The notes: a model not told the origin generated them from the sequence alone. Positions 5,431 to 53,685 are shown, counted from the first letter of the whole stretch. The stretch: 61,461 nt of DNA, filler included, from Candidatus Nezhaarchaeota archaeon WYZ-LMO8 (GCA_004347965.1; 7 parts of 7 records of this genome joined end to end with filler, not necessarily neighbours in it); one strand, 5' to 3'. Numbers and translations are program-made.

Positions 5431-5551
5431 TGGTGCGGGGGGTGGGATTCGAACCCACGAAGGCCTACGCCACGGGATTTCTTACGCCCATCCGGCCTCA
5501 AATTCGAGGAGATCTTAAGTCCCGCCCCTTTGTCCGCTCGGGAACCCCCGC
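5431..5551 (-). tRNA. tRNA-Leu(TAA) with 35-nt intron at 37/38 (5479-5513)
   Basis: Arm CGGGA-CTTAAG|A-TCCCG after removing the intron; central helix CTTA/TAAG with AG|A and AA|A bulges; long variable arm; encoded CCA. Confidence 0.93.
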
Positions 5552-5614: not shown

Positions 5615-5647
5615 TCGCTCTGCTAATACATATGCTTGGTGATCTCC

Positions 5648-6712
5648 ATGACCTTCTTTGAAGTTAGGAGCGTGGAGTGGCGAGATGGCGTTGTTAGGCT
5701 CTTAGATCAAAACGCATTGCCATGGGAGATGCGGTACGTGGAGTGCAGGAGAGTCGAGGAAGTCGCCAGAGCAATTAGAGAGATGACTGTTAGAGGAGCC
5801 CCTGCGATAGGAGTGGCGGCTGCCATGGGGATCGCATTAGCCGTTGTACACTCCAATGCAAGGAGCTTAGAGGAGCTTCTTAGAGACGTGAGCTCTGCAG
5901 CTGAGATTCTCTCGAAGGCGAGACCCACAGCTAGGAACTTGTTTTGGGCCATTGAGAGGATGATAGGTAGGATTAGAGAGGCAAGGAGCCTTGAGGAGGC
6001 AAGGAGCATAGCTTTAAGCGAAGCCCTCAAGATGGCTGACGAGGATGTAGAGGTGAATAAAAGGATTGGTGATGTGGGTGCCACGCTCATAAGTGATGGC
6101 GACGTGATATTAACTCACTGTAAACAGCTGGGCTAGCCCAGCTGGCAGAGTGCAGGGGCCTTAGCTACCGTCGGCTACGGTACAGCGCTAGGTGTCATTA
6201 GGAGGGCGGTAGCTCAAGGGAAGAGGGTCAAGGTCGTAGCCACGGAGACGAGACCAAGACTTCAAGGAGCGAAGTTAACAGTCTACGAGCTTAAGAGAGA
6301 TGGCATCGACGTCACCCTGATAACAGACAACATGGTCGGTTACGTCATGAGCCGAGGAATGGTCAATAAGGTCATAGTTGGAGCGGATAGGATATTGAGA
6401 GATGGTCACGTGGTCAACAAGATAGGGACTCTAACCATAGCTATAGTTGCTAAAAGGTACTCGATACCATTCTACGTGGCAGCACCGTCATCAACCTTCG
6501 ACTTAAAGTCGAGGGTCGACGAAATAGTAATAGAGTATAGAGACCCCAGAGAGGTCTTAGAGGTTAACGGTAGGCCTATCACCATAGACGTCGAGGTGCT
6601 AAATCCAGCGTTTGACGTAACACCTCCAGACCTCGTAACAGCAATAATAACCGAGAAGGGAGTGATATGGCCTCCATACCACGAGAACATACCGAGGACC
6701 ATGGGGAGATGA
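5648..6712 (+). CDS. mtnA: S-methyl-5-thioribose-1-phosphate isomerase (eIF2B-like family); predicted spliced CDS join(5648..6123,6151..6712), 345 aa
   Basis: LLDQNALP, VRGAPAIG, ARPTARNL, LTHC[N][45 protein letters not shown]; the two track ORFs are in the same frame; GGTGA RBS before ATG 5648. Confidence 0.9.
6124..6150 (+). other. Putative bulge-helix-bulge-type pre-mRNA intron (27 nt) in mtnA
   Basis: CTGT-AA|A-CAGCTGGG-CTAG-CCCAGCTG-GCAG-AG|T; removal gives TGT AAT GCA (Cys-Asn-Ala) and eliminates an in-frame TAG. Confidence 0.82.
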
Positions 6713-6847: not shown

Positions 6848-6925
6848 GCGGCCGTCGTCTAGCCTGGACTAGGACACCAGCCTTCCACGCTGGCGACCCG
6901 GGTTCAAATCCCGGCGGCCGCACCA
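6848..6925 (+). tRNA. tRNA-Gly(TCC)
   Basis: Anticodon arm CCAGC-CTTCCAC-GCTGG; encoded CCA; T-rich terminator follows. Confidence 0.97.
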
Positions 6926-7061
6926 CCTTTTTCTTCGTTCTCTGCTTTCTCAATTTCTTGCTTATAATCACAAATTTAGTCTCAAAGGTAAGCTTCTTTA
7001 GCTAAACTTAAGAAGTCTTCAACTGCCCATTCCTTATATATTTGTGATGAAAGTTTAACAA

Positions 7062-7558
7062 TGAGAAGGGTGTTTATGTTGGATGAAGCCTACATAGGAG
7101 AAATTGTTCAGCCTTTCCCACCTCAATTTCTGGAGGATTTATTCGAGTTTGGGTAATTCATTGAGCGTAAAATACTCCGTCTATGAAAAGGAAATCTCTA
7201 GTGAGGCGTTAGAGATTGGAGAGATGGAAGGTGTTAAACTTGAGGATCGATACGTTGGTGGTGCACAAGTCTATTCAAAAGGAAGAGCTTCAATCGAGAA
7301 GCTTTTACAAATATATCAAGAATGATATCAGTATTGGATGTGAGAAGTTTTGGGGAAAAATGTTCGAAGAAATTGGGAGAGAGCGCCAAGAATCAATATA
7401 GGATAGATGAATTTTACTGGTCTAAATGGAAGGGCGAGGAAAGCCAAGGCTATAGTATGAAATTCGACAAATACAGTTTAAAATTGAGATGGATCCAAAG
7501 GAAGAGAAAATTATTGAAGGAATTATCGATTATGCAAAAAGCACCACGTGAAGATTAA
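7062..7558 (+). pseudogene. Fragmented cargo gene(s) of unknown function
   Basis: Several short overlapping ORFs in alternating frames inside the element. Confidence 0.35.
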
Positions 7559-7701
7559 CATCAAAATAAGCCGAAGTTAAAAGTCTGCTAATTTTCATTT
7601 GAGAAATGTTTCTTCCTTAGTCTTGAACTTGAATTTTGTTGAAGGTTTGTTAAGTTAATATAATATAGTGGCTGAAATTTAATTTAAAAGGAGGATGTTG
7701 A

Positions 7702-7944
7702 ATGATTGAAGTAGCTATTGGTTTAATGGGGCTGGCTTTAAGTGTTTTAGGGGTTGTGCTTGGTTATATATGGCGAGCCAATAGTAGATTAGCTAAGATG
7801 CTCCTCGAAGGTCAAGAAAGAATGCAAAAGGGAATGGAAGTGTTGCAAAAAGGAATGGAAGGAATAGCCTTAATGGTAAGAGATGTCCATGAAGGGCAAA
7901 AAGAGATGATGAAACTCTTAGCAGAAATATACAAGAAGATCTAG
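7702..7944 (+). CDS. Small membrane-anchored coiled-coil protein
   Basis: AGGAGG RBS; N-terminal TM helix; QKGME heptad repeats. Confidence 0.75.
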   Translation: MIEVAIGLMGLALSVLGVVLGYIWRANSRLAKMLLEGQERMQKGMEVLQKGMEGIALMVRDVHEGQKEMMKLLAEIYKKI

Positions 7945-8039
7945 TTTGAAACTCAAATTTGATCTTTAAAAGGCGGGAATAAATCTCCTGCTTTTATTTA
8001 AAGAGAATCTTAGTTCAAAACTTTTAAGATTGTTTTGTC

Positions 8040-8770
8040 ATAGATTTCTTTAGCTTTTCTGGGCAGAACCATTCTCTCAACACTTGTGGAGTAATGTTTA
8101 GCCCGGTTTTGCTCTTGCTTCAAGAAAAATTCCGTGTTTCTTGTTCGTTTTCAAAGAGAAGAGTTTATCACTGTTTTTGGTCCAATTTTTAACCATTGCT
8201 TTAGTGCTTTCTCAGCTTCATCGTCGTAGAATGTGATGTAGCTCTTTTTTAGAGTCGTGGTGAGGTATGACCATTCTCTTTTTAAGGACGAATATTGCTT
8301 TTTTACACTTTAAGGCTCCATATAACTTGCTCTTCTTTAGAGGGGGCCCTTTTGATGGTTGGATTTGGAAATTTAAAGCTTTGAACTAGACCCGGTCTTG
8401 CCAAGAAATCCCTAAAAAACCTTTGTAACGCTTTTAGCATGTTGGCATAAGTGTGTGAATTTCCATCCTTCAAATTTAAAAGGAAACTCCAAACATCTTT
8501 AACATCTACAGAATTGATGTTTCCTTGTTTCATCCACACCAAAAACTTTCTTATTTTATAGATGTACTGTTTCACCGTTTGTTTTGGAAAGCTGAAGATC
8601 GACTAGGCAGAATTCACTAAATCTCCTCAATATTTCCTTAAAATCAGAAATTCTCTCAAAATTATTCTCCTTATTCTCTATTTCTCTATTCAAATTGTTC
8701 TAATTTGCATTCTGGGCAATTTAAGAGGCTGCCACGCTGCGGACCCGGGTTCAAATCCCGGCGGCCGCAC
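8040..8770 (-). pseudogene. Tyrosine integrase C-terminal fragment, frameshifted and truncated
   Basis: Frame begins in the att (VRPPGFEPGSAAWQ); ORF 8303-8575; further pieces KRMVIP, KSYITFYDDEAEKALKQWL and TGLNITPQVLREWFC in shifted frames. Confidence 0.8.
8729..8770 (+). repeat. att site: 42-bp copy of the tRNA-Gly 3' half
   Basis: CTGCCACGCTGCGGACCCGGGTTCAAATCCCGGCGGCCGCAC; 42/42 match to tRNA-Gly(GCC); last 29 nt identical to tRNA-Gly(TCC). Confidence 0.93.
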
Positions 8771-8966
8771 TTTAACCTTTTTCTAGTGATGGCTGCTCGC
8801 TACGGCACTCCTAGTATTCCTTCATTACACGCTGAATAACTGGAGGCCCTCATAGGGGTTGATGAGTACCTTCATTAAGGAGCACCTCAAAGAAATCGAA
8901 GTAGGATCTCTGAGCGGAAATGCGATGAGAGTGTTGCGACGCATTCACGACCTAGAAGCTGCTAGG

Positions 8967-22249: not shown

Positions 22250-22362
22250 GCGGGGGTGGCCGAGTCAGGTCAAAGGCGCGGGACTGAGGCACGGTCCCTC
22301 TAAAGACCGCTCGAATCCCGTGGCGTAGGCCTGCGTGGGTTCAAATCCCACCCCCCGCACCA
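22250..22362 (+). tRNA. tRNA-Leu(GAG) with 25-nt intron (best fit 38/39, 22291-22315)
   Basis: Helix TGAG/CTCG, bulges GC|A and AA|T, intron stem CGGTC/GACCG; long variable arm; encoded CCA. Confidence 0.92.
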
Positions 22363-42711: not shown

Positions 42712-43950
42712 TTATCGAGGAGCATACCTCAAAATGGCTGCCATGCCCTTAAAGGACTCTAGAAAACCCTTTCCTTCCTCCGTTCCACTAGAGATGATTT
42801 CAATCTTGGTGTTAAACGTCTTTGAGAGCTCTACCAAGTACTCTATCACGTCTCCTTGCTCTATATTAGTTACTTGACCGCATACAGGGCACTTGGAGTG
42901 TGCCCCCTTAAACTCCTCTACTTCATCCTCCCTTACGAGGTCTTCATTAGTCCATCCACAGGTACTGCAGGAGACCTTTACGTAGCTTAGTGGGACGTCC
43001 TCCGATACTATTAGAGTGTCGACAACCCCCTGTTTTAAGAGATAGTAGACCTCTCTGTATCCATAAGCGATTAAGTCGCTCTTCTTAGCTAGGTATTCTA
43101 AGAACTTCTGAATAACCTGCTTTTCGTGAACGTACCTCATCCCTTCTAAGAGGCTTTGCGCCCTTTCTATAACCTCGTAGACCCCTTCTTCTCCTGTGTA
43201 TCCTACATCTACTATCCCTATGACCATCCTCTTGAGGTCGTAGGGCAGGTAATCACCATCGTAGAAATCGTTCTTCGTTGGACCTGGTCCTCCAAGGATT
43301 ATTCCCTTGAGGTCTTTAACCTCCGAGAATAATTTTTGAGCGTATTCTCCAGCTCTCTTGTAGAATTCGTGAGCCATTATTTCTATCACTCTCTCAAATC
43401 TTCTAGCTGACTGACCTCCAGCACTATGCTTTCCAGGTACACCTGAGGTTATTTCATCAAGAATCTTTAATCTCCTGCCTGTAAGGAGAGCAAAGGTTGC
43501 ACTGCTCCTATCGATTACAATGATGCCGTAGCTACCCTTCTCCTCGAGCATTTCTTCTAATATCTCTGTGTGAAAACGCGAGTCACATCGGTATAGGTAT
43601 GTGTTTATGGGCTCTGGAGGCTCTATGACGTAGACCTCCATCTTCTCACTACCTGGAGGACCTCTAGGAATGTAACCGGCAAATATCACTAGCCCGTTCT
43701 TAGGCGTTGAAGTGAATAATTTAAGCCTCTGCAAGGTTACGGTTAGTGCATCAAGCACGTGATGCCTTGTGGTCCTATCCTTTATGTTAGCTGCTGTAGA
43801 TAGCTCCTCTCTTAGAGCTGATGTTACCTCGCCAAGCGGTCTACCAGCTGGTATGTAGAGTGATATGAGCTCTGTTCCCCTACCCATCTTGGACTTTAAC
43901 TCCTTGACTAATCGTTCAAGCTTAACCTTGTCTATGCTTATCGTCATCAC
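42712..43950 (-). CDS. prf1: Peptide chain release factor aRF1
   Basis: GTELISLYIP, NIKD, YRCD, GGQSARRF, zinc mini-domain. Confidence 0.96.
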   Translation of the reverse strand: MMTISIDKVKLERLVKELKSKMGRGTELISLYIPAGRPLGEVTSALREELSTAANIKDRTTRHHVLDALTVTLQRLKLFTSTPKNGLVIFAGYIPRGPPGSEKMEVYVIEPPEPINTYLYRCDSRFHTEILEEMLEEKGSYGIIVIDRSSATFALLTGRRLKILDEITSGVPGKHSAGGQSARRFERVIEIMAHEFYKRAGEYAQKLFSEVKDLKGIILGGPGPTKNDFYDGDYLPYDLKRMVIGIVDVGYTGEEGVYEVIERAQSLLEGMRYVHEKQVIQKFLEYLAKKSDLIAYGYREVYYLLKQGVVDTLIVSEDVPLSYVKVSCSTCGWTNEDLVREDEVEEFKGAHSKCPVCGQVTNIEQGDVIEYLVELSKTFNTKIEIISSGTEEGKGFLESFKGMAAILRYAPR

Positions 43951-45194
43951 CTTCTCTCAGCTTCGAATTTGAACTTTATTTCTGGATACTCATTTACGGC
44001 TATCCCGTCCTCCAAGTTATCTACTACTACCAACTCTTGTGCTCGACACGTCCCCTTTATGTCCTCAGCTCCAATCCTTATTGAGTCCATGAATGTGGAG
44101 CTGCCTATCCACAGGATTCTCAATGGATGACCTGGTGATAACCTGTTTCTTACCTTAGTCCTCCTCACAGCTGCTATAGTTGCCACAACGACGTTTCCCT
44201 TAGCTTCAAGATCTTCGTCGAATTCGCATTCCGATGGAGTTGGCCATGAAGTTAAGTGGATGCTCTCAGCTCCTACTCTTTCTTTGAAGGCAGCATGATA
44301 TATCTCCTCAGTTATGAAGGGACAGAAGGGGGCTAAAAGCCTTAGTATTATGTAAAGAGACTTTGTAAGCGTATATTGAGCAGCTCTCTTGCTTTCAACT
44401 GTGCTCTGCCAATAAAGCCTGTACTTTACGGCCTCGAGATAGTGGTCGCAGAAAACGTGCCACACAAAGTTTCTTAGAGAGTCGAGAGCTTCGTTGAATC
44501 GCATTTCCTCCATGGCTCTAGTTACCTGCTCTATGAGTCTCCTAAGCTTGGTTAAGAGCCATAAGTCTAAGACCTTCAGCTTGCTGGGCTTAGAGTAGTT
44601 GTAATCCGTTGTATTCGCTATTACGAGGCGTGAGGCGTTCCAAAGCTTTATTAAGAAGCGCCAGGCGTAATCGACATCCTCCCACCTAAACCTTATATCG
44701 TAGCCTGTCGAGCCGCTAGCAGCCCACTGCCTTAGAGCATCTGCACAATACTTTTCAACAACTTCTTTAGCCTCTATGTAGTTGCCGTAGGACTTATGCA
44801 TCATCCTACCATCAGTTCCTCGAACCATACCGTTGATAAGAGCCACCTTATAGGGGATGCGATTGAAGAGTGCTAGGTGCCTTACTAGTAAGTAGTAATC
44901 CCACGTCCTTATGATGTCGTAGCCGTTAGGTTGCAAGTCGTTCGGGTAAAGCTTACTAAACAGCTCTACATCATCAGGCCACCCCGCTATTACAGCGCAA
45001 GTTATTGAGGAGTCCATCCAAGTATCCATTACATCGCTCTCGCCTAGAAAATCACGTGAACCACATTTAGGGCAGCTATCAATAGGTGGCTGCTGCTCTC
45101 TAGGATCTACAGGAAGCCACTCTGGCTTGGCAACTATCACGTTATCACACTTTTTGCAGTACCAAACTGGTATTGGTGTTGCGAAGATCCTCTG
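43947..45194 (-). CDS. valS: Valine--tRNA ligase (3' part)
   Basis: TPIPVWYC, DVMDTWMDS, DIIRTW, MMHKSYGN (KMSKS equivalent), KLWNASR. Confidence 0.92.
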   Translation of the reverse strand, partial: QRIFATPIPVWYCKKCDNVIVAKPEWLPVDPREQQPPIDSCPKCGSRDFLGESDVMDTWMDSSITCAVIAGWPDDVELFSKLYPNDLQPNGYDIIRTWDYYLLVRHLALFNRIPYKVALINGMVRGTDGRMMHKSYGNYIEAKEVVEKYCADALRQWAASGSTGYDIRFRWEDVDYAWRFLIKLWNASRLVIANTTDYNYSKPSKLKVLDLWLLTKLRRLIEQVTRAMEEMRFNEALDSLRNFVWHVFCDHYLEAVKYRLYWQSTVESKRAAQYTLTKSLYIILRLLAPFCPFITEEIYHAAFKERVGAESIHLTSWPTPSECEFDEDLEAKGNVVVATIAAVRRTKVRNRLSPGHPLRILWIGSSTFMDSIRIGAEDIKGTCRAQELVVVDNLEDGIAVNEYPEIKFKFEAERR

Positions 45195-45294
45195 NNNNNN
45201 NNNNNNNNNNNNNNNNNNNNNNNNNNNNNNNNNNNNNNTTAATTAATTAANNNNNNNNNNNNNNNNNNNNNNNNNNNNNNNNNNNNNNNNNNNN
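45195..45294. other. Artificial contig spacer
   Basis: N44-TTAATTAATTAA-N44. Confidence 0.99.
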
Positions 45295-45899
45295 ATGGGA
45301 GTTATGCAACCAACGGTGTCTGCAACTCCAATCCTATCAGCTCCACGATCTATAGCAGCTCTATAGAACCTTAAGAGCCTTTTAAGTGGCGTCCTTGTAG
45401 CATCCTCACAAGTGAATTGCACGAAAATTCCGTGAGACTTAGCATACTCTATGACTTCTAGAGCGCAACCCAAAACGTCTTCGGCACTCATCTTCAGCTT
45501 CCACTTTAAGTGGATATCGGATGAAGGAGCGAATACTATGACTCCATCAACGTCGCAGCTCAAAGCTAGGTCGACATCTGACTTCAAGGCTCTGCAGAGA
45601 CACAAGACCTTGGACTCAGAGACAGCTTTAGAAACAGATCTAACAGCCTCCTCCTCATCGCTTGATATAGCTGGGAAGCCAGCCTCCACCTCTCTTATGC
45701 CGCAATCCTCCAACAGGAGGGCTATCTTCACCTTATCTTCAACTGTAAGTGAGACTCCTGGTGTTTGCTCACCATCCCTCAAGGTGGTGTCATAGAGTAT
45801 CGGCTTCCTATTATACCTAGCATTGTAAAGACTTGTCGCTATACCTCTCTCTTTCATGTCTTTGAGTAGCTCCTCAATGCTCTTAAGCTCACCAACCAT
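45295..45899 (-). CDS. Homocitrate/isopropylmalate synthase-family (DRE-TIM) enzyme, 5' part
   Basis: DTTLRDGEQTPG, EAGFP, EDATRT, ADTVG. Confidence 0.9.
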
Positions 45900-53038: not shown

Positions 53039-53685
53039 TCAAAAAGCTCTAAGATTAACCTTAATCGGAGGACTATAGGAGGCAGTCTCGCAGCCTAACA
53101 TGACCTCTCGAGCAAAGCCTAGAGGTCCTGAGGATATTGCCTTAATTTCTGAGAAGAAGCTGCGTGCATCAATAGCAAAGTAGTTTACTTTAACTGGATC
53201 CCTCAGCTCCCCCTTAATTAACAAGAAGGTTGCGTCAGGTTCTATTGCAAGCAGCTCATTGACCAAGTACACTCGTTTAACTCCATGAACTAAGAAGCCA
53301 AGCTTCGTCTCCTCTACGATTTCCTTAAGGCTCCAATCTCCAGGGCACACAATTATATTGCTGTGTAGAGGCTCGGGGGGACAGCAAATCCCCTTCCATT
53401 ACCCGTAGGCTCGACACCATGTACATAGGCAGTCTCTCTATTATGCAAGAGGGAGACAAGCCTTCCATCTTCTATTAGCTTCTTGCGCCTAGCCTTGACC
53501 CCCTCGTCGTCGAAGAAGAAGTTTCCATACCCACCCTCAATAGTCGGATCGTCGAGTATCGTTAGGTTACTGTAGCCATCCTTTAAATGCCACCTCCAGC
53601 TTCTTGCATTTAAAAACTCTTCAACGATCACTTGCATGACGTGAGAAGCCGCCTTCGGTGATAGAACCACTTCGAACCTCGATCC
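53039..53685 (-). pseudogene. TldD/PmbA-family C-terminal region with a frameshift in a C6 run
   Basis: TILDDPT, FFDDEGV, LIEDG, PTGNGR; continues in another frame as PEPLHSNIIVCPGDW. Confidence 0.7.

Follow-up and report, generated by a model that had tools for sequence, protein, structure and literature searches.

The window analysed here is the whole stretch of 61,461 nucleotides from Candidatus Nezhaarchaeota archaeon WYZ-LMO8 (GCA_004347965.1), in which seven records of the genome are joined end to end with filler, and all positions are counted from its first letter. Near its start lies mtnA of this hot-spring archaeon, which encodes S-methyl-5-thioribose-1-phosphate isomerase (MtnA), an enzyme of methionine salvage. 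The gene occupies a single frame on the plus strand from 5636 or 5648 to 6712 (an in-frame TTG at 5636 precedes the ATG at 5648) and is interrupted by a lone TAG at 6134-6136. With the insert described below read through, the product matches MtnA profiles over their full length and above their curated cut-offs (434.7 bits against NCBIfam NF004326, cut-off 271; 388.8 bits against TIGR00512, cut-off 279). It contains the THC and VGADRI motifs, and we take the Cys and Asp of the THC...GADR motifs to be the catalytic residues.

The TAG belongs to a 27-nt insert (6124-6150) that splits the gene between the catalytic Cys codon and the Asn codon that follows it. Deleting the insert joins TGT-AA to T-GCA, which restores Thr-His-Cys-Asn-Ala-Gly and gives 345 codons from the ATG at 5648. 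In an alignment with the solved Archaeoglobus fulgidus homologue (1T5O), the nine inserted residues fall as a gap exactly between Cys and Asn. The features of the locus are as follows; the splice sites are predicted.

5431..5551, minus strand: tRNA-Leu(UAA), divergent neighbour of mtnA, with a predicted 35-nt intron (ARAGORN intron search)
5648..6123, plus strand: mtnA exon 1, ending in Thr-His-Cys plus AA of the Asn codon; the ATG is also the start of the database protein P0002 (162 aa)
6118..6121, plus strand: 5' strand of the central helix H, CUGU, exonic, pairing with 6145-6148
6122..6124, plus strand: 5' bulge AAA, with the predicted 5' splice site after its second base
6124..6150, plus strand: putative HBh'-type intron of 27 nt, with predicted cuts between A6123 and A6124 and between G6150 and U6151
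6125..6144, plus strand: helix h', a perfect 8-bp hairpin (6125-6132 with 6137-6144, loop CUAG) that contains the TAG at 6134-6136
6145..6148, plus strand: 3' strand of the central helix H, GCAG, intronic
6149..6151, plus strand: 3' splice-site triplet AGU, with the predicted cut after G6150; U6151 completes the Asn codon
6151..6712, plus strand: mtnA exon 2, from the third base of the Asn codon, stop codon 6710-6712 included
6848..6925, plus strand: tRNA-Gly(UCC), downstream neighbour of mtnA

The order tRNA-Leu(UAA), mtnA, tRNA-Gly(UCC) is kept across the Nezhaarchaeales-type clade. The exonic CUGU at 6118-6121 is made up of the last base of the His codon and the Cys codon. The window has a single copy of the perfect 20-nt palindrome at 6125-6144, which did not arise in any of 100 shuffles. 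It is also single copy in a related genome, G001 (source of locus L001, 79% MtnA identity), and an origin of the insert as a repeat or mobile element was rejected.

A first-pass annotation of this DNA had described two mtnA open reading frames (ORFs) in one frame separated only by the TAG of the insert, a perfect palindrome, and a 4-bp CTGT/GCAG helix followed by an AAA bulge, an 8-bp stem and AGT. It had further proposed that cuts at AA/A and AG/T would rejoin the split THCN motif and yield a 345-aa protein. The single stop codon, the palindrome and the layout of the fold agree with our analysis to the base, and the outcome of the cuts follows by arithmetic on the sequence. As to whether the DNA might lack the insert, contigs from three further studies all contain it, so the insert is real DNA and no assembly artefact. 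One independent 953-nt contig differs from the window by 5 single-nucleotide polymorphisms, none of them within the insert, and aligns with 0 gaps.

A scan of one genome per species gave 80 mtnA loci, of which the four closest to the window (79-89% identity; two are labelled Nezhaarchaeales) carry inserts of 30, 30, 32 and 31 nt at the same spot and the remaining 76 carry none. Further carriers came from a scan of metagenomes, including a distant one (L093, 60% identity) whose 24-nt insert has a wholly different stem sequence. Taken together, the two scans found the insert in 13 of 161 mtnA loci. When these 13 were spliced in silico, every frame was open: the 12 whole genes gave full-length products of 352-366 aa, and the remaining frame (L086) stays open until it ends at the contig end.

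We then took a census of 400 species genomes sampled evenly from the phylum of G001, 392 of which have an mtnA-family match. Among 34 genomes with oddly low scores that were searched again, 20 have mtnA split in two frames at profile position ~159. A DNA pattern for the junction matched 27 of the 400 genomes, as against none for the reversed pattern used as a control; 24 of the matches lie within mtnA and three are chance matches in other genes. Two extra carriers with Leu in place of His were missed by this pattern. Overall, the mtnA intron was verified in at least 26 of the 400 census genomes, a lower bound. One low-scoring genome (G344; locus L213, G344:C72) has an mtnA without the intron and with a 1-nt frameshift just after THCNAG, which is either a sequencing error or a true pseudogene.

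In total we obtained 26 distinct junction sequences with an insert at exactly the same site of mtnA. Their carriers belong to Nezhaarchaeales and to at least three to six further lineages within the phylum. Cuts in the canonical register give T(H/L/Y)CNAGA in all 26. The inserts measure 19, 22, 23, 24, 25, 27, 29, 30, 31, 32 or 34 nt; nine of the 26 lengths are multiples of three, about the one-third expected if the reading frame is irrelevant, and 17 are not. The unspliced frame stops within seven codons of the Cys codon in 22 of the 26 versions. Probable traces of the same interruption are found in a protein collection that was searched with the N-terminal mtnA ORF and restricted to proteins of 91-291 aa. 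Among the 120 matches listed, 70 end no more than 14 residues after T-x-C, two of which continue into NAG and are contig-end truncations, leaving 68; eight further proteins among the 120 listed continue out of frame after THCKW. The source names of these half-size MtnA proteins, which are known from protein sequences alone, include Bathyarchaeia and Caldarchaeum.

Alignment of the relatives, which the first-pass annotation had proposed as a check for intron presence or absence and for compensatory changes, yielded both the 26 same-codon inserts and a covarying outer stem. The central helix H is intact throughout, with four of four pairs formed in 26 of 26 introns (104 of 104 cells). Its successive pairs are C-G in 26; U-A in 21 and U-G in 5; G-C in 24 and G-U in 2; and C-G in 17 and U-G in 9. 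The 5' bulge is AAA in 21 of the 26 and AAU in 5, and the 3' triplet (AAU in 12, AUU in 7, AGU in 6, AUC in 1) always completes AAU or AAC, that is, Asn. The outer stem h' ranges from 3 to 10 bp over the 26 versions and covaries through compensatory pairs: pair 1 is C-G in 13 and U-A in 13, pair 2 A-U in 15 and G-C in 11, and pair 3 G-C in 19, A-U in 6 and G-U in 1. In a MAFFT alignment of nine sequences, pairing is 100% in H and 98.7% in h', both partners of three pairs have changed, and control structures slid by 1-3 columns along the same alignment are 24-53% paired.

The coding sequence on either side is under purifying selection. In six comparisons of the window with members of the Nezhaarchaeales clade, dN/dS was 0.03-0.08 for every exon whose dS was unsaturated, and these pairs include carriers in which exon 2 lies in another frame. 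No relaxed selection on the 3' half was found: exon 2 is the better conserved half, with 84-90% amino-acid identity versus 75-78% for exon 1. Synonymous sites are near saturation in the same six pairs, and the stems of the insert are far more conserved than these sites.

The layout is that of a relaxed HBh' motif, in which H is joined by one true bulge to h' and the second site lies 3 nt past H. It is matched in the window and in all 26 intron versions. Relaxed forms of the bulge-helix-bulge (BHB) motif were reportedly defined by Marck and Grosjean in 2003. The strict hBHBh' form has two bulges, each closed by an outer helix, which the mtnA intron does not have: the exon-exon helix h measures 0 bp in 24 of the 26 introns and 1 bp in the other two, and a shifted version with a 3-bp exon-exon helix is 77.8% paired in the nine-sequence alignment. 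We class the intron as relaxed because this helix is absent. Since there is no exon-exon helix, no closed bulge surrounds the 3' cut site, and a broad-specificity enzyme would be needed for cleavage.

The shape alone carries little weight. A loose HBh' search of the window (4-bp helix, 3-nt bulge, adjacent stem of at least 6 bp) returned 178 matches (82 + 96), so that the shape is common by chance and uninformative, and what makes the mtnA site significant is that its removal restores the gene exactly and that relatives have conserved it. A still looser scan with 7,460 matches was combined with a test for ORF merging, in which removal must fuse two open frames of at least 100 codons inside one gene. 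This flagged the 27-nt site in mtnA together with two overlapping registers, the remaining flags being stop/start overlaps between neighbouring genes; among the 7,460 loose matches, no other BHB-interrupted coding gene was flagged in the window.

Several other explanations of the insert have to be weighed, and a pseudogene, read-through, ribosome hopping, a split protein and an assembly error are each contradicted by the data. A decaying mtnA killed by a small palindromic insertion would account for an in-frame stop at the heart of the active site, and it gains some plausibility from gene remnants elsewhere in the window (43947-45899 and 53039-53670) and from the plain 1-nt frameshift of mtnA in G344. 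However, strong purifying selection on both exons, with the part beyond the stop the better conserved, excludes a pseudogene. The 26 distinct insert forms are spread over deep clades and come with no second lesion, their stems outconserve synonymous sites and change by compensatory pairs, and G001 has no other mtnA match, so we consider loss of function very improbable. We regard as equally implausible that the insert is dealt with during translation, whether by read-through or recoding of the stop codon or by ribosome hopping of the T4 gene 60 type. In T4 gene 60, ribosomes hop over a hairpin that follows a stop codon, and the mtnA insert, with its stable hairpin just past the Cys codon and an in-frame stop soon after it in most versions, resembles this only superficially. 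Read-through is excluded by the frame-shifting lengths, as 17 of the 26 inserts could not lead into exon 2 in frame. Hopping would call for matching take-off and landing codons, yet none are conserved in the 26 versions, in which the 3' triplet is AAU, AUU, AGU or AUC. Were the ribosome to hop from the Cys codon to UGC downstream, it would skip the conserved Asn-Ala and, in the window, resume out of frame. What is conserved, a 4-bp helix and two 3-nt sites, is what the archaeal splicing endonuclease EndA needs and not what hopping needs.

It is still harder to credit that the two halves are separate polypeptides that assemble, that the insert is removed from the DNA, or that it is an artefact of assembly. 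Split genes exist in some archaea, and gene callers annotate the N-terminal half as a protein of 161-168 aa in many metagenomes. Yet the first in-frame ATG, GTG or TTG after the TAG lies at 6332, so that 60 conserved residues would be lost, and the break falls inside the active-site motif THCNAG. Against removal from the DNA or an artefact stands the presence of the insert in contigs of the three other studies, with no insert-free join among the contigs of four assemblies, which drop rare variants; the single copy of the palindrome is a further point against it.

We therefore consider it highly probable that the mtnA insert is a relaxed BHB (HBh') intron of the pre-mRNA, spliced by proteins. 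This was the central proposal of the first-pass annotation, with EndA cutting at AA/A and AG/U, and it is supported by 26 inserts at one codon, 17 of them frame-shifting, by a central helix present in every version and an outer stem that covaries, by one register of cuts that restores the motif, by selection on the exons and by a two-subunit EndA in relatives (below). The annotation's picture of a rare single site was too narrow, as the intron is widespread, in at least 26 of 400 sampled genomes. In the proposed mechanism, the exonic C-UGU would pair with the intronic GCAG to form the 4-bp central helix, and the 8-bp hairpin of the intron would supply the outer helix h'. EndA would then cut after the second base of each splice-site triplet (AA/A and AG/U), and the ligase RtcB would join the exons, creating the AAU codon for Asn and an mRNA for the 345-aa MtnA; the excised 27-mer would probably be released as a circle. 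Unspliced mRNA would yield only a fragment of 162-166 aa ending five codons past the catalytic Cys. Cleavage, ligation and formation of the 27-nt circle in vivo are what we infer.

The machinery was sought in the two nearest genomes, G001 and G186; in the latter the mtnA insert is identical to that of the window, with 82-95% nucleotide identity elsewhere. Both encode two members of the EndA family. Of the two copies in G001, that of 191 aa matches the catalytic repeat of endonucleases with two repeats and retains Tyr/His/Lys, whose aligned His we take to be catalytic, and that of 178 aa matches the structural repeat, with a Gly aligned to this His. The nearest genomes thus appear to encode a two-subunit EndA (alpha plus beta-like), a type that reportedly cuts non-canonical introns (PMC5829648). 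RtcB is present in G001. No EndA gene was found among the window ORFs of at least 90 aa, and we infer that the organism's own EndA is of the same type as that of its relatives.

The same genomes contain an intron in cbf5. In G001 (L164 ~1690-1720) it is a 21-nt canonical hBHBh' intron with h, H and h' of 4 bp each, and the cut rule applied to mtnA restores GTLDP. In G186 (G186:C1:836956-837928), cbf5 occupies two frames that part at the same profile position, and in both genomes the intron sits at the codon of the catalytic Asp. Among tRNA genes, ARAGORN predicts a 25-nt intron in tRNA-Leu(GAG) of the window (22250-22362, plus strand), the intron to which the first-pass annotation had likened that of mtnA. 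The tRNA-Gly(UCC) syntenic with the downstream neighbour of mtnA has a predicted 18-nt intron in L001 (L001 4210-4305) that is absent from the copy in the window.

Introns of this kind are known from one other coding sequence. According to two papers, cbf5 is the only archaeal gene with a previously reported intron in its coding sequence (PMC7714728; PMC2738675); the pre-mRNA intron of crenarchaeal cbf5 was first described by Watanabe 2002 and treated further by Yoshinari 2006 and Yokobori 2009 (PMC2738675). Yokobori 2009 gives splicing as confirmed for no gene besides cbf5 and attributes predictions of further introns, in genes other than cbf5, to Brügger et al. 2006 (PMC2738675), and Schwarz et al. 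2020 name cbf5 as the sole earlier mRNA case of a BHB motif and add an intron in the 5' untranslated region of HVO_1309 in Haloferax volcanii (PMC7714728). A search of the freely accessible full-text literature returned no report of an intron in mtnA or in Nezhaarchaeota. The mtnA intron lies outside the cbf5 intron family in having another host gene, and is the same kind of intron: both are tens of nucleotides long, BHB-like and placed in a protein-coding gene at the codon of a catalytic residue. According to PMC2738675, the cbf5 intron often has a relaxed motif, attributed to hetero-oligomeric EndA, and is lineage-specific. In contrast to cbf5, which encodes an RNA-modifying enzyme, the host here is a metabolic isomerase, and the mtnA intron is without an exon-exon helix throughout, unlike that of cbf5 in G001 with its full hBHBh' motif. 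The cbf5 intron has experimental support, whereas the mtnA intron is known from sequence alone. Overall, the data point to an intron in mtnA that is real, widespread and of a known kind in a new host gene, with its splicing predicted.

Like the mtnA intron as proposed here, that of Haloferax HVO_1309 extends the substrates of the archaeal splicing endonuclease beyond tRNA and rRNA to an mRNA, but it sits in an untranslated leader, independent of frame, and involves a euryarchaeal enzyme and a single organism. Relaxed hBH and HBh' introns in tRNAs of Crenarchaeota are reportedly cleaved by EndA of the (alpha-beta)2 or epsilon2 type (PMC5829648; PMC2724299). These tRNA introns share with the mtnA intron the motif class, the size range (25 and 35 nt in the tRNA-Leu genes of the window) and presumably the enzymes. 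In mtnA, however, the intron sits in an mRNA, so that recognition would lack the aid of a tRNA body, and the cuts must be exact to the base to keep the codon. A more distant counterpart is the splicing of HAC1 and XBP1 in eukaryotes, a regulated stress response in which IRE1 cleaves and RtcB or Trl1 ligates. The likeness lies in a short coding intron removed at stem-loop sites independently of the spliceosome, in ligation of the RtcB type and in a protein output that depends on splicing; the nuclease and motif differ from those of the mtnA intron, which is not known to be regulated.

The exon sequence next to the intron offers an alternative pairing. The exonic UGCAG (6151-6155) repeats the intronic GCAG (6145-6148) and competes with it for CUGU(A), and in the ViennaRNA minimum-energy fold of 6095-6180, CUGUA pairs with the exonic UGCAG instead. 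This fold is no more stable than that of shuffled sequence (z = -1.03 versus shuffles). The GCRG duplication, an exon copy of the 3' helix strand of the intron, is seen in all 26 versions of the mtnA intron and possibly underlies an alternative conformer or records the way in which the intron arose.

In a FastTree phylogeny of 188 MtnA rows, an unrooted gene tree, the 33 rows with the intron fall in uniform clades: 14 in a Nezhaarchaeales-type clade, seven in one with UGGC-type stems, eight near Terraquivivens and the rest in three small clades. Six changes are required on this unrooted gene tree, at least three of which are forced by well-supported branches. In a first, smaller tree, two changes were required and an AU test did not reject a single intron clade (p = 0.239). 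The intron may have an ancient origin with losses or a history of repeated gain at one codon. A fuller reading, which we offer tentatively and think rather doubtful as a whole, is of a widespread intron, ancient or repeatedly inserted, with splicing that is possibly conditional through the competing fold. Under it, several Thermoproteota lineages would carry the intron either from an early common ancestor or through repeated site-specific insertion at one and the same codon, for instance by EndA and RtcB acting in reverse on an mRNA, followed by reverse transcription and recombination. The exonic GCRG may give a competing fold, which could make synthesis of MtnA conditional; such conditional splicing, if true, would couple salvage of sulfur and S-adenosylmethionine (SAM) to the state of the RNA-splicing machinery.

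A second coding mRNA intron, hosted by the gene of an ordinary metabolic enzyme and present in at least 26 of 400 genomes, would take mRNA splicing by EndA and RtcB beyond a curiosity of one gene. It would also explain the half-size MtnA calls, labelled "partial" or "hypothetical", in many hot-spring and sediment archaea, as a result of which mtnA is mistakenly counted as broken when pathways are reconstructed. Taken together, the 26 natural variants amount to a ready series of mutants for defining the smallest mRNA substrate of a broad-specificity EndA, which in these variants would consist of a 4-bp helix, two 3-nt sites and an outer stem of 3-10 bp, with no exon-exon helix. Recurrence at one codon is also relevant to the question of how such introns originate and spread.

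Lastly, in Pfam scans that covered 54 ORFs (90 aa or longer) and eight small flanking ORFs, no homing endonuclease was detected near mtnA, and the only mobile-element trace in these scans is a 90-aa N-terminal fragment of a phage integrase (8303-8575, minus strand). It lies in an AT-rich stretch at 7000-8800 (33-38% GC versus 45-53% around it), directly 3' of tRNA-Gly(UCC). Apart from this fragment the stretch has only small ORFs that match no family, and it is probably what remains of an element that integrated at the tRNA gene. At 43947-45899 (minus strand), a 397-aa ORF corresponds to the last third of a class I aminoacyl-tRNA synthetase core with the anticodon-binding domain, and an adjoining 218-aa HMGL-like ORF covers profile positions 2-172 of 260. 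Both ORFs appear truncated at a common junction (~45140-45243), which could reflect a deletion, a split gene or a chimeric join. At 53039-53670 (minus strand), two adjacent ORFs in the same frame are separated by one stop; the upstream ORF covers only positions 48-115 of the 220 in the PmbA/TldD C-terminal domain, and the pair is a probable gene remnant.
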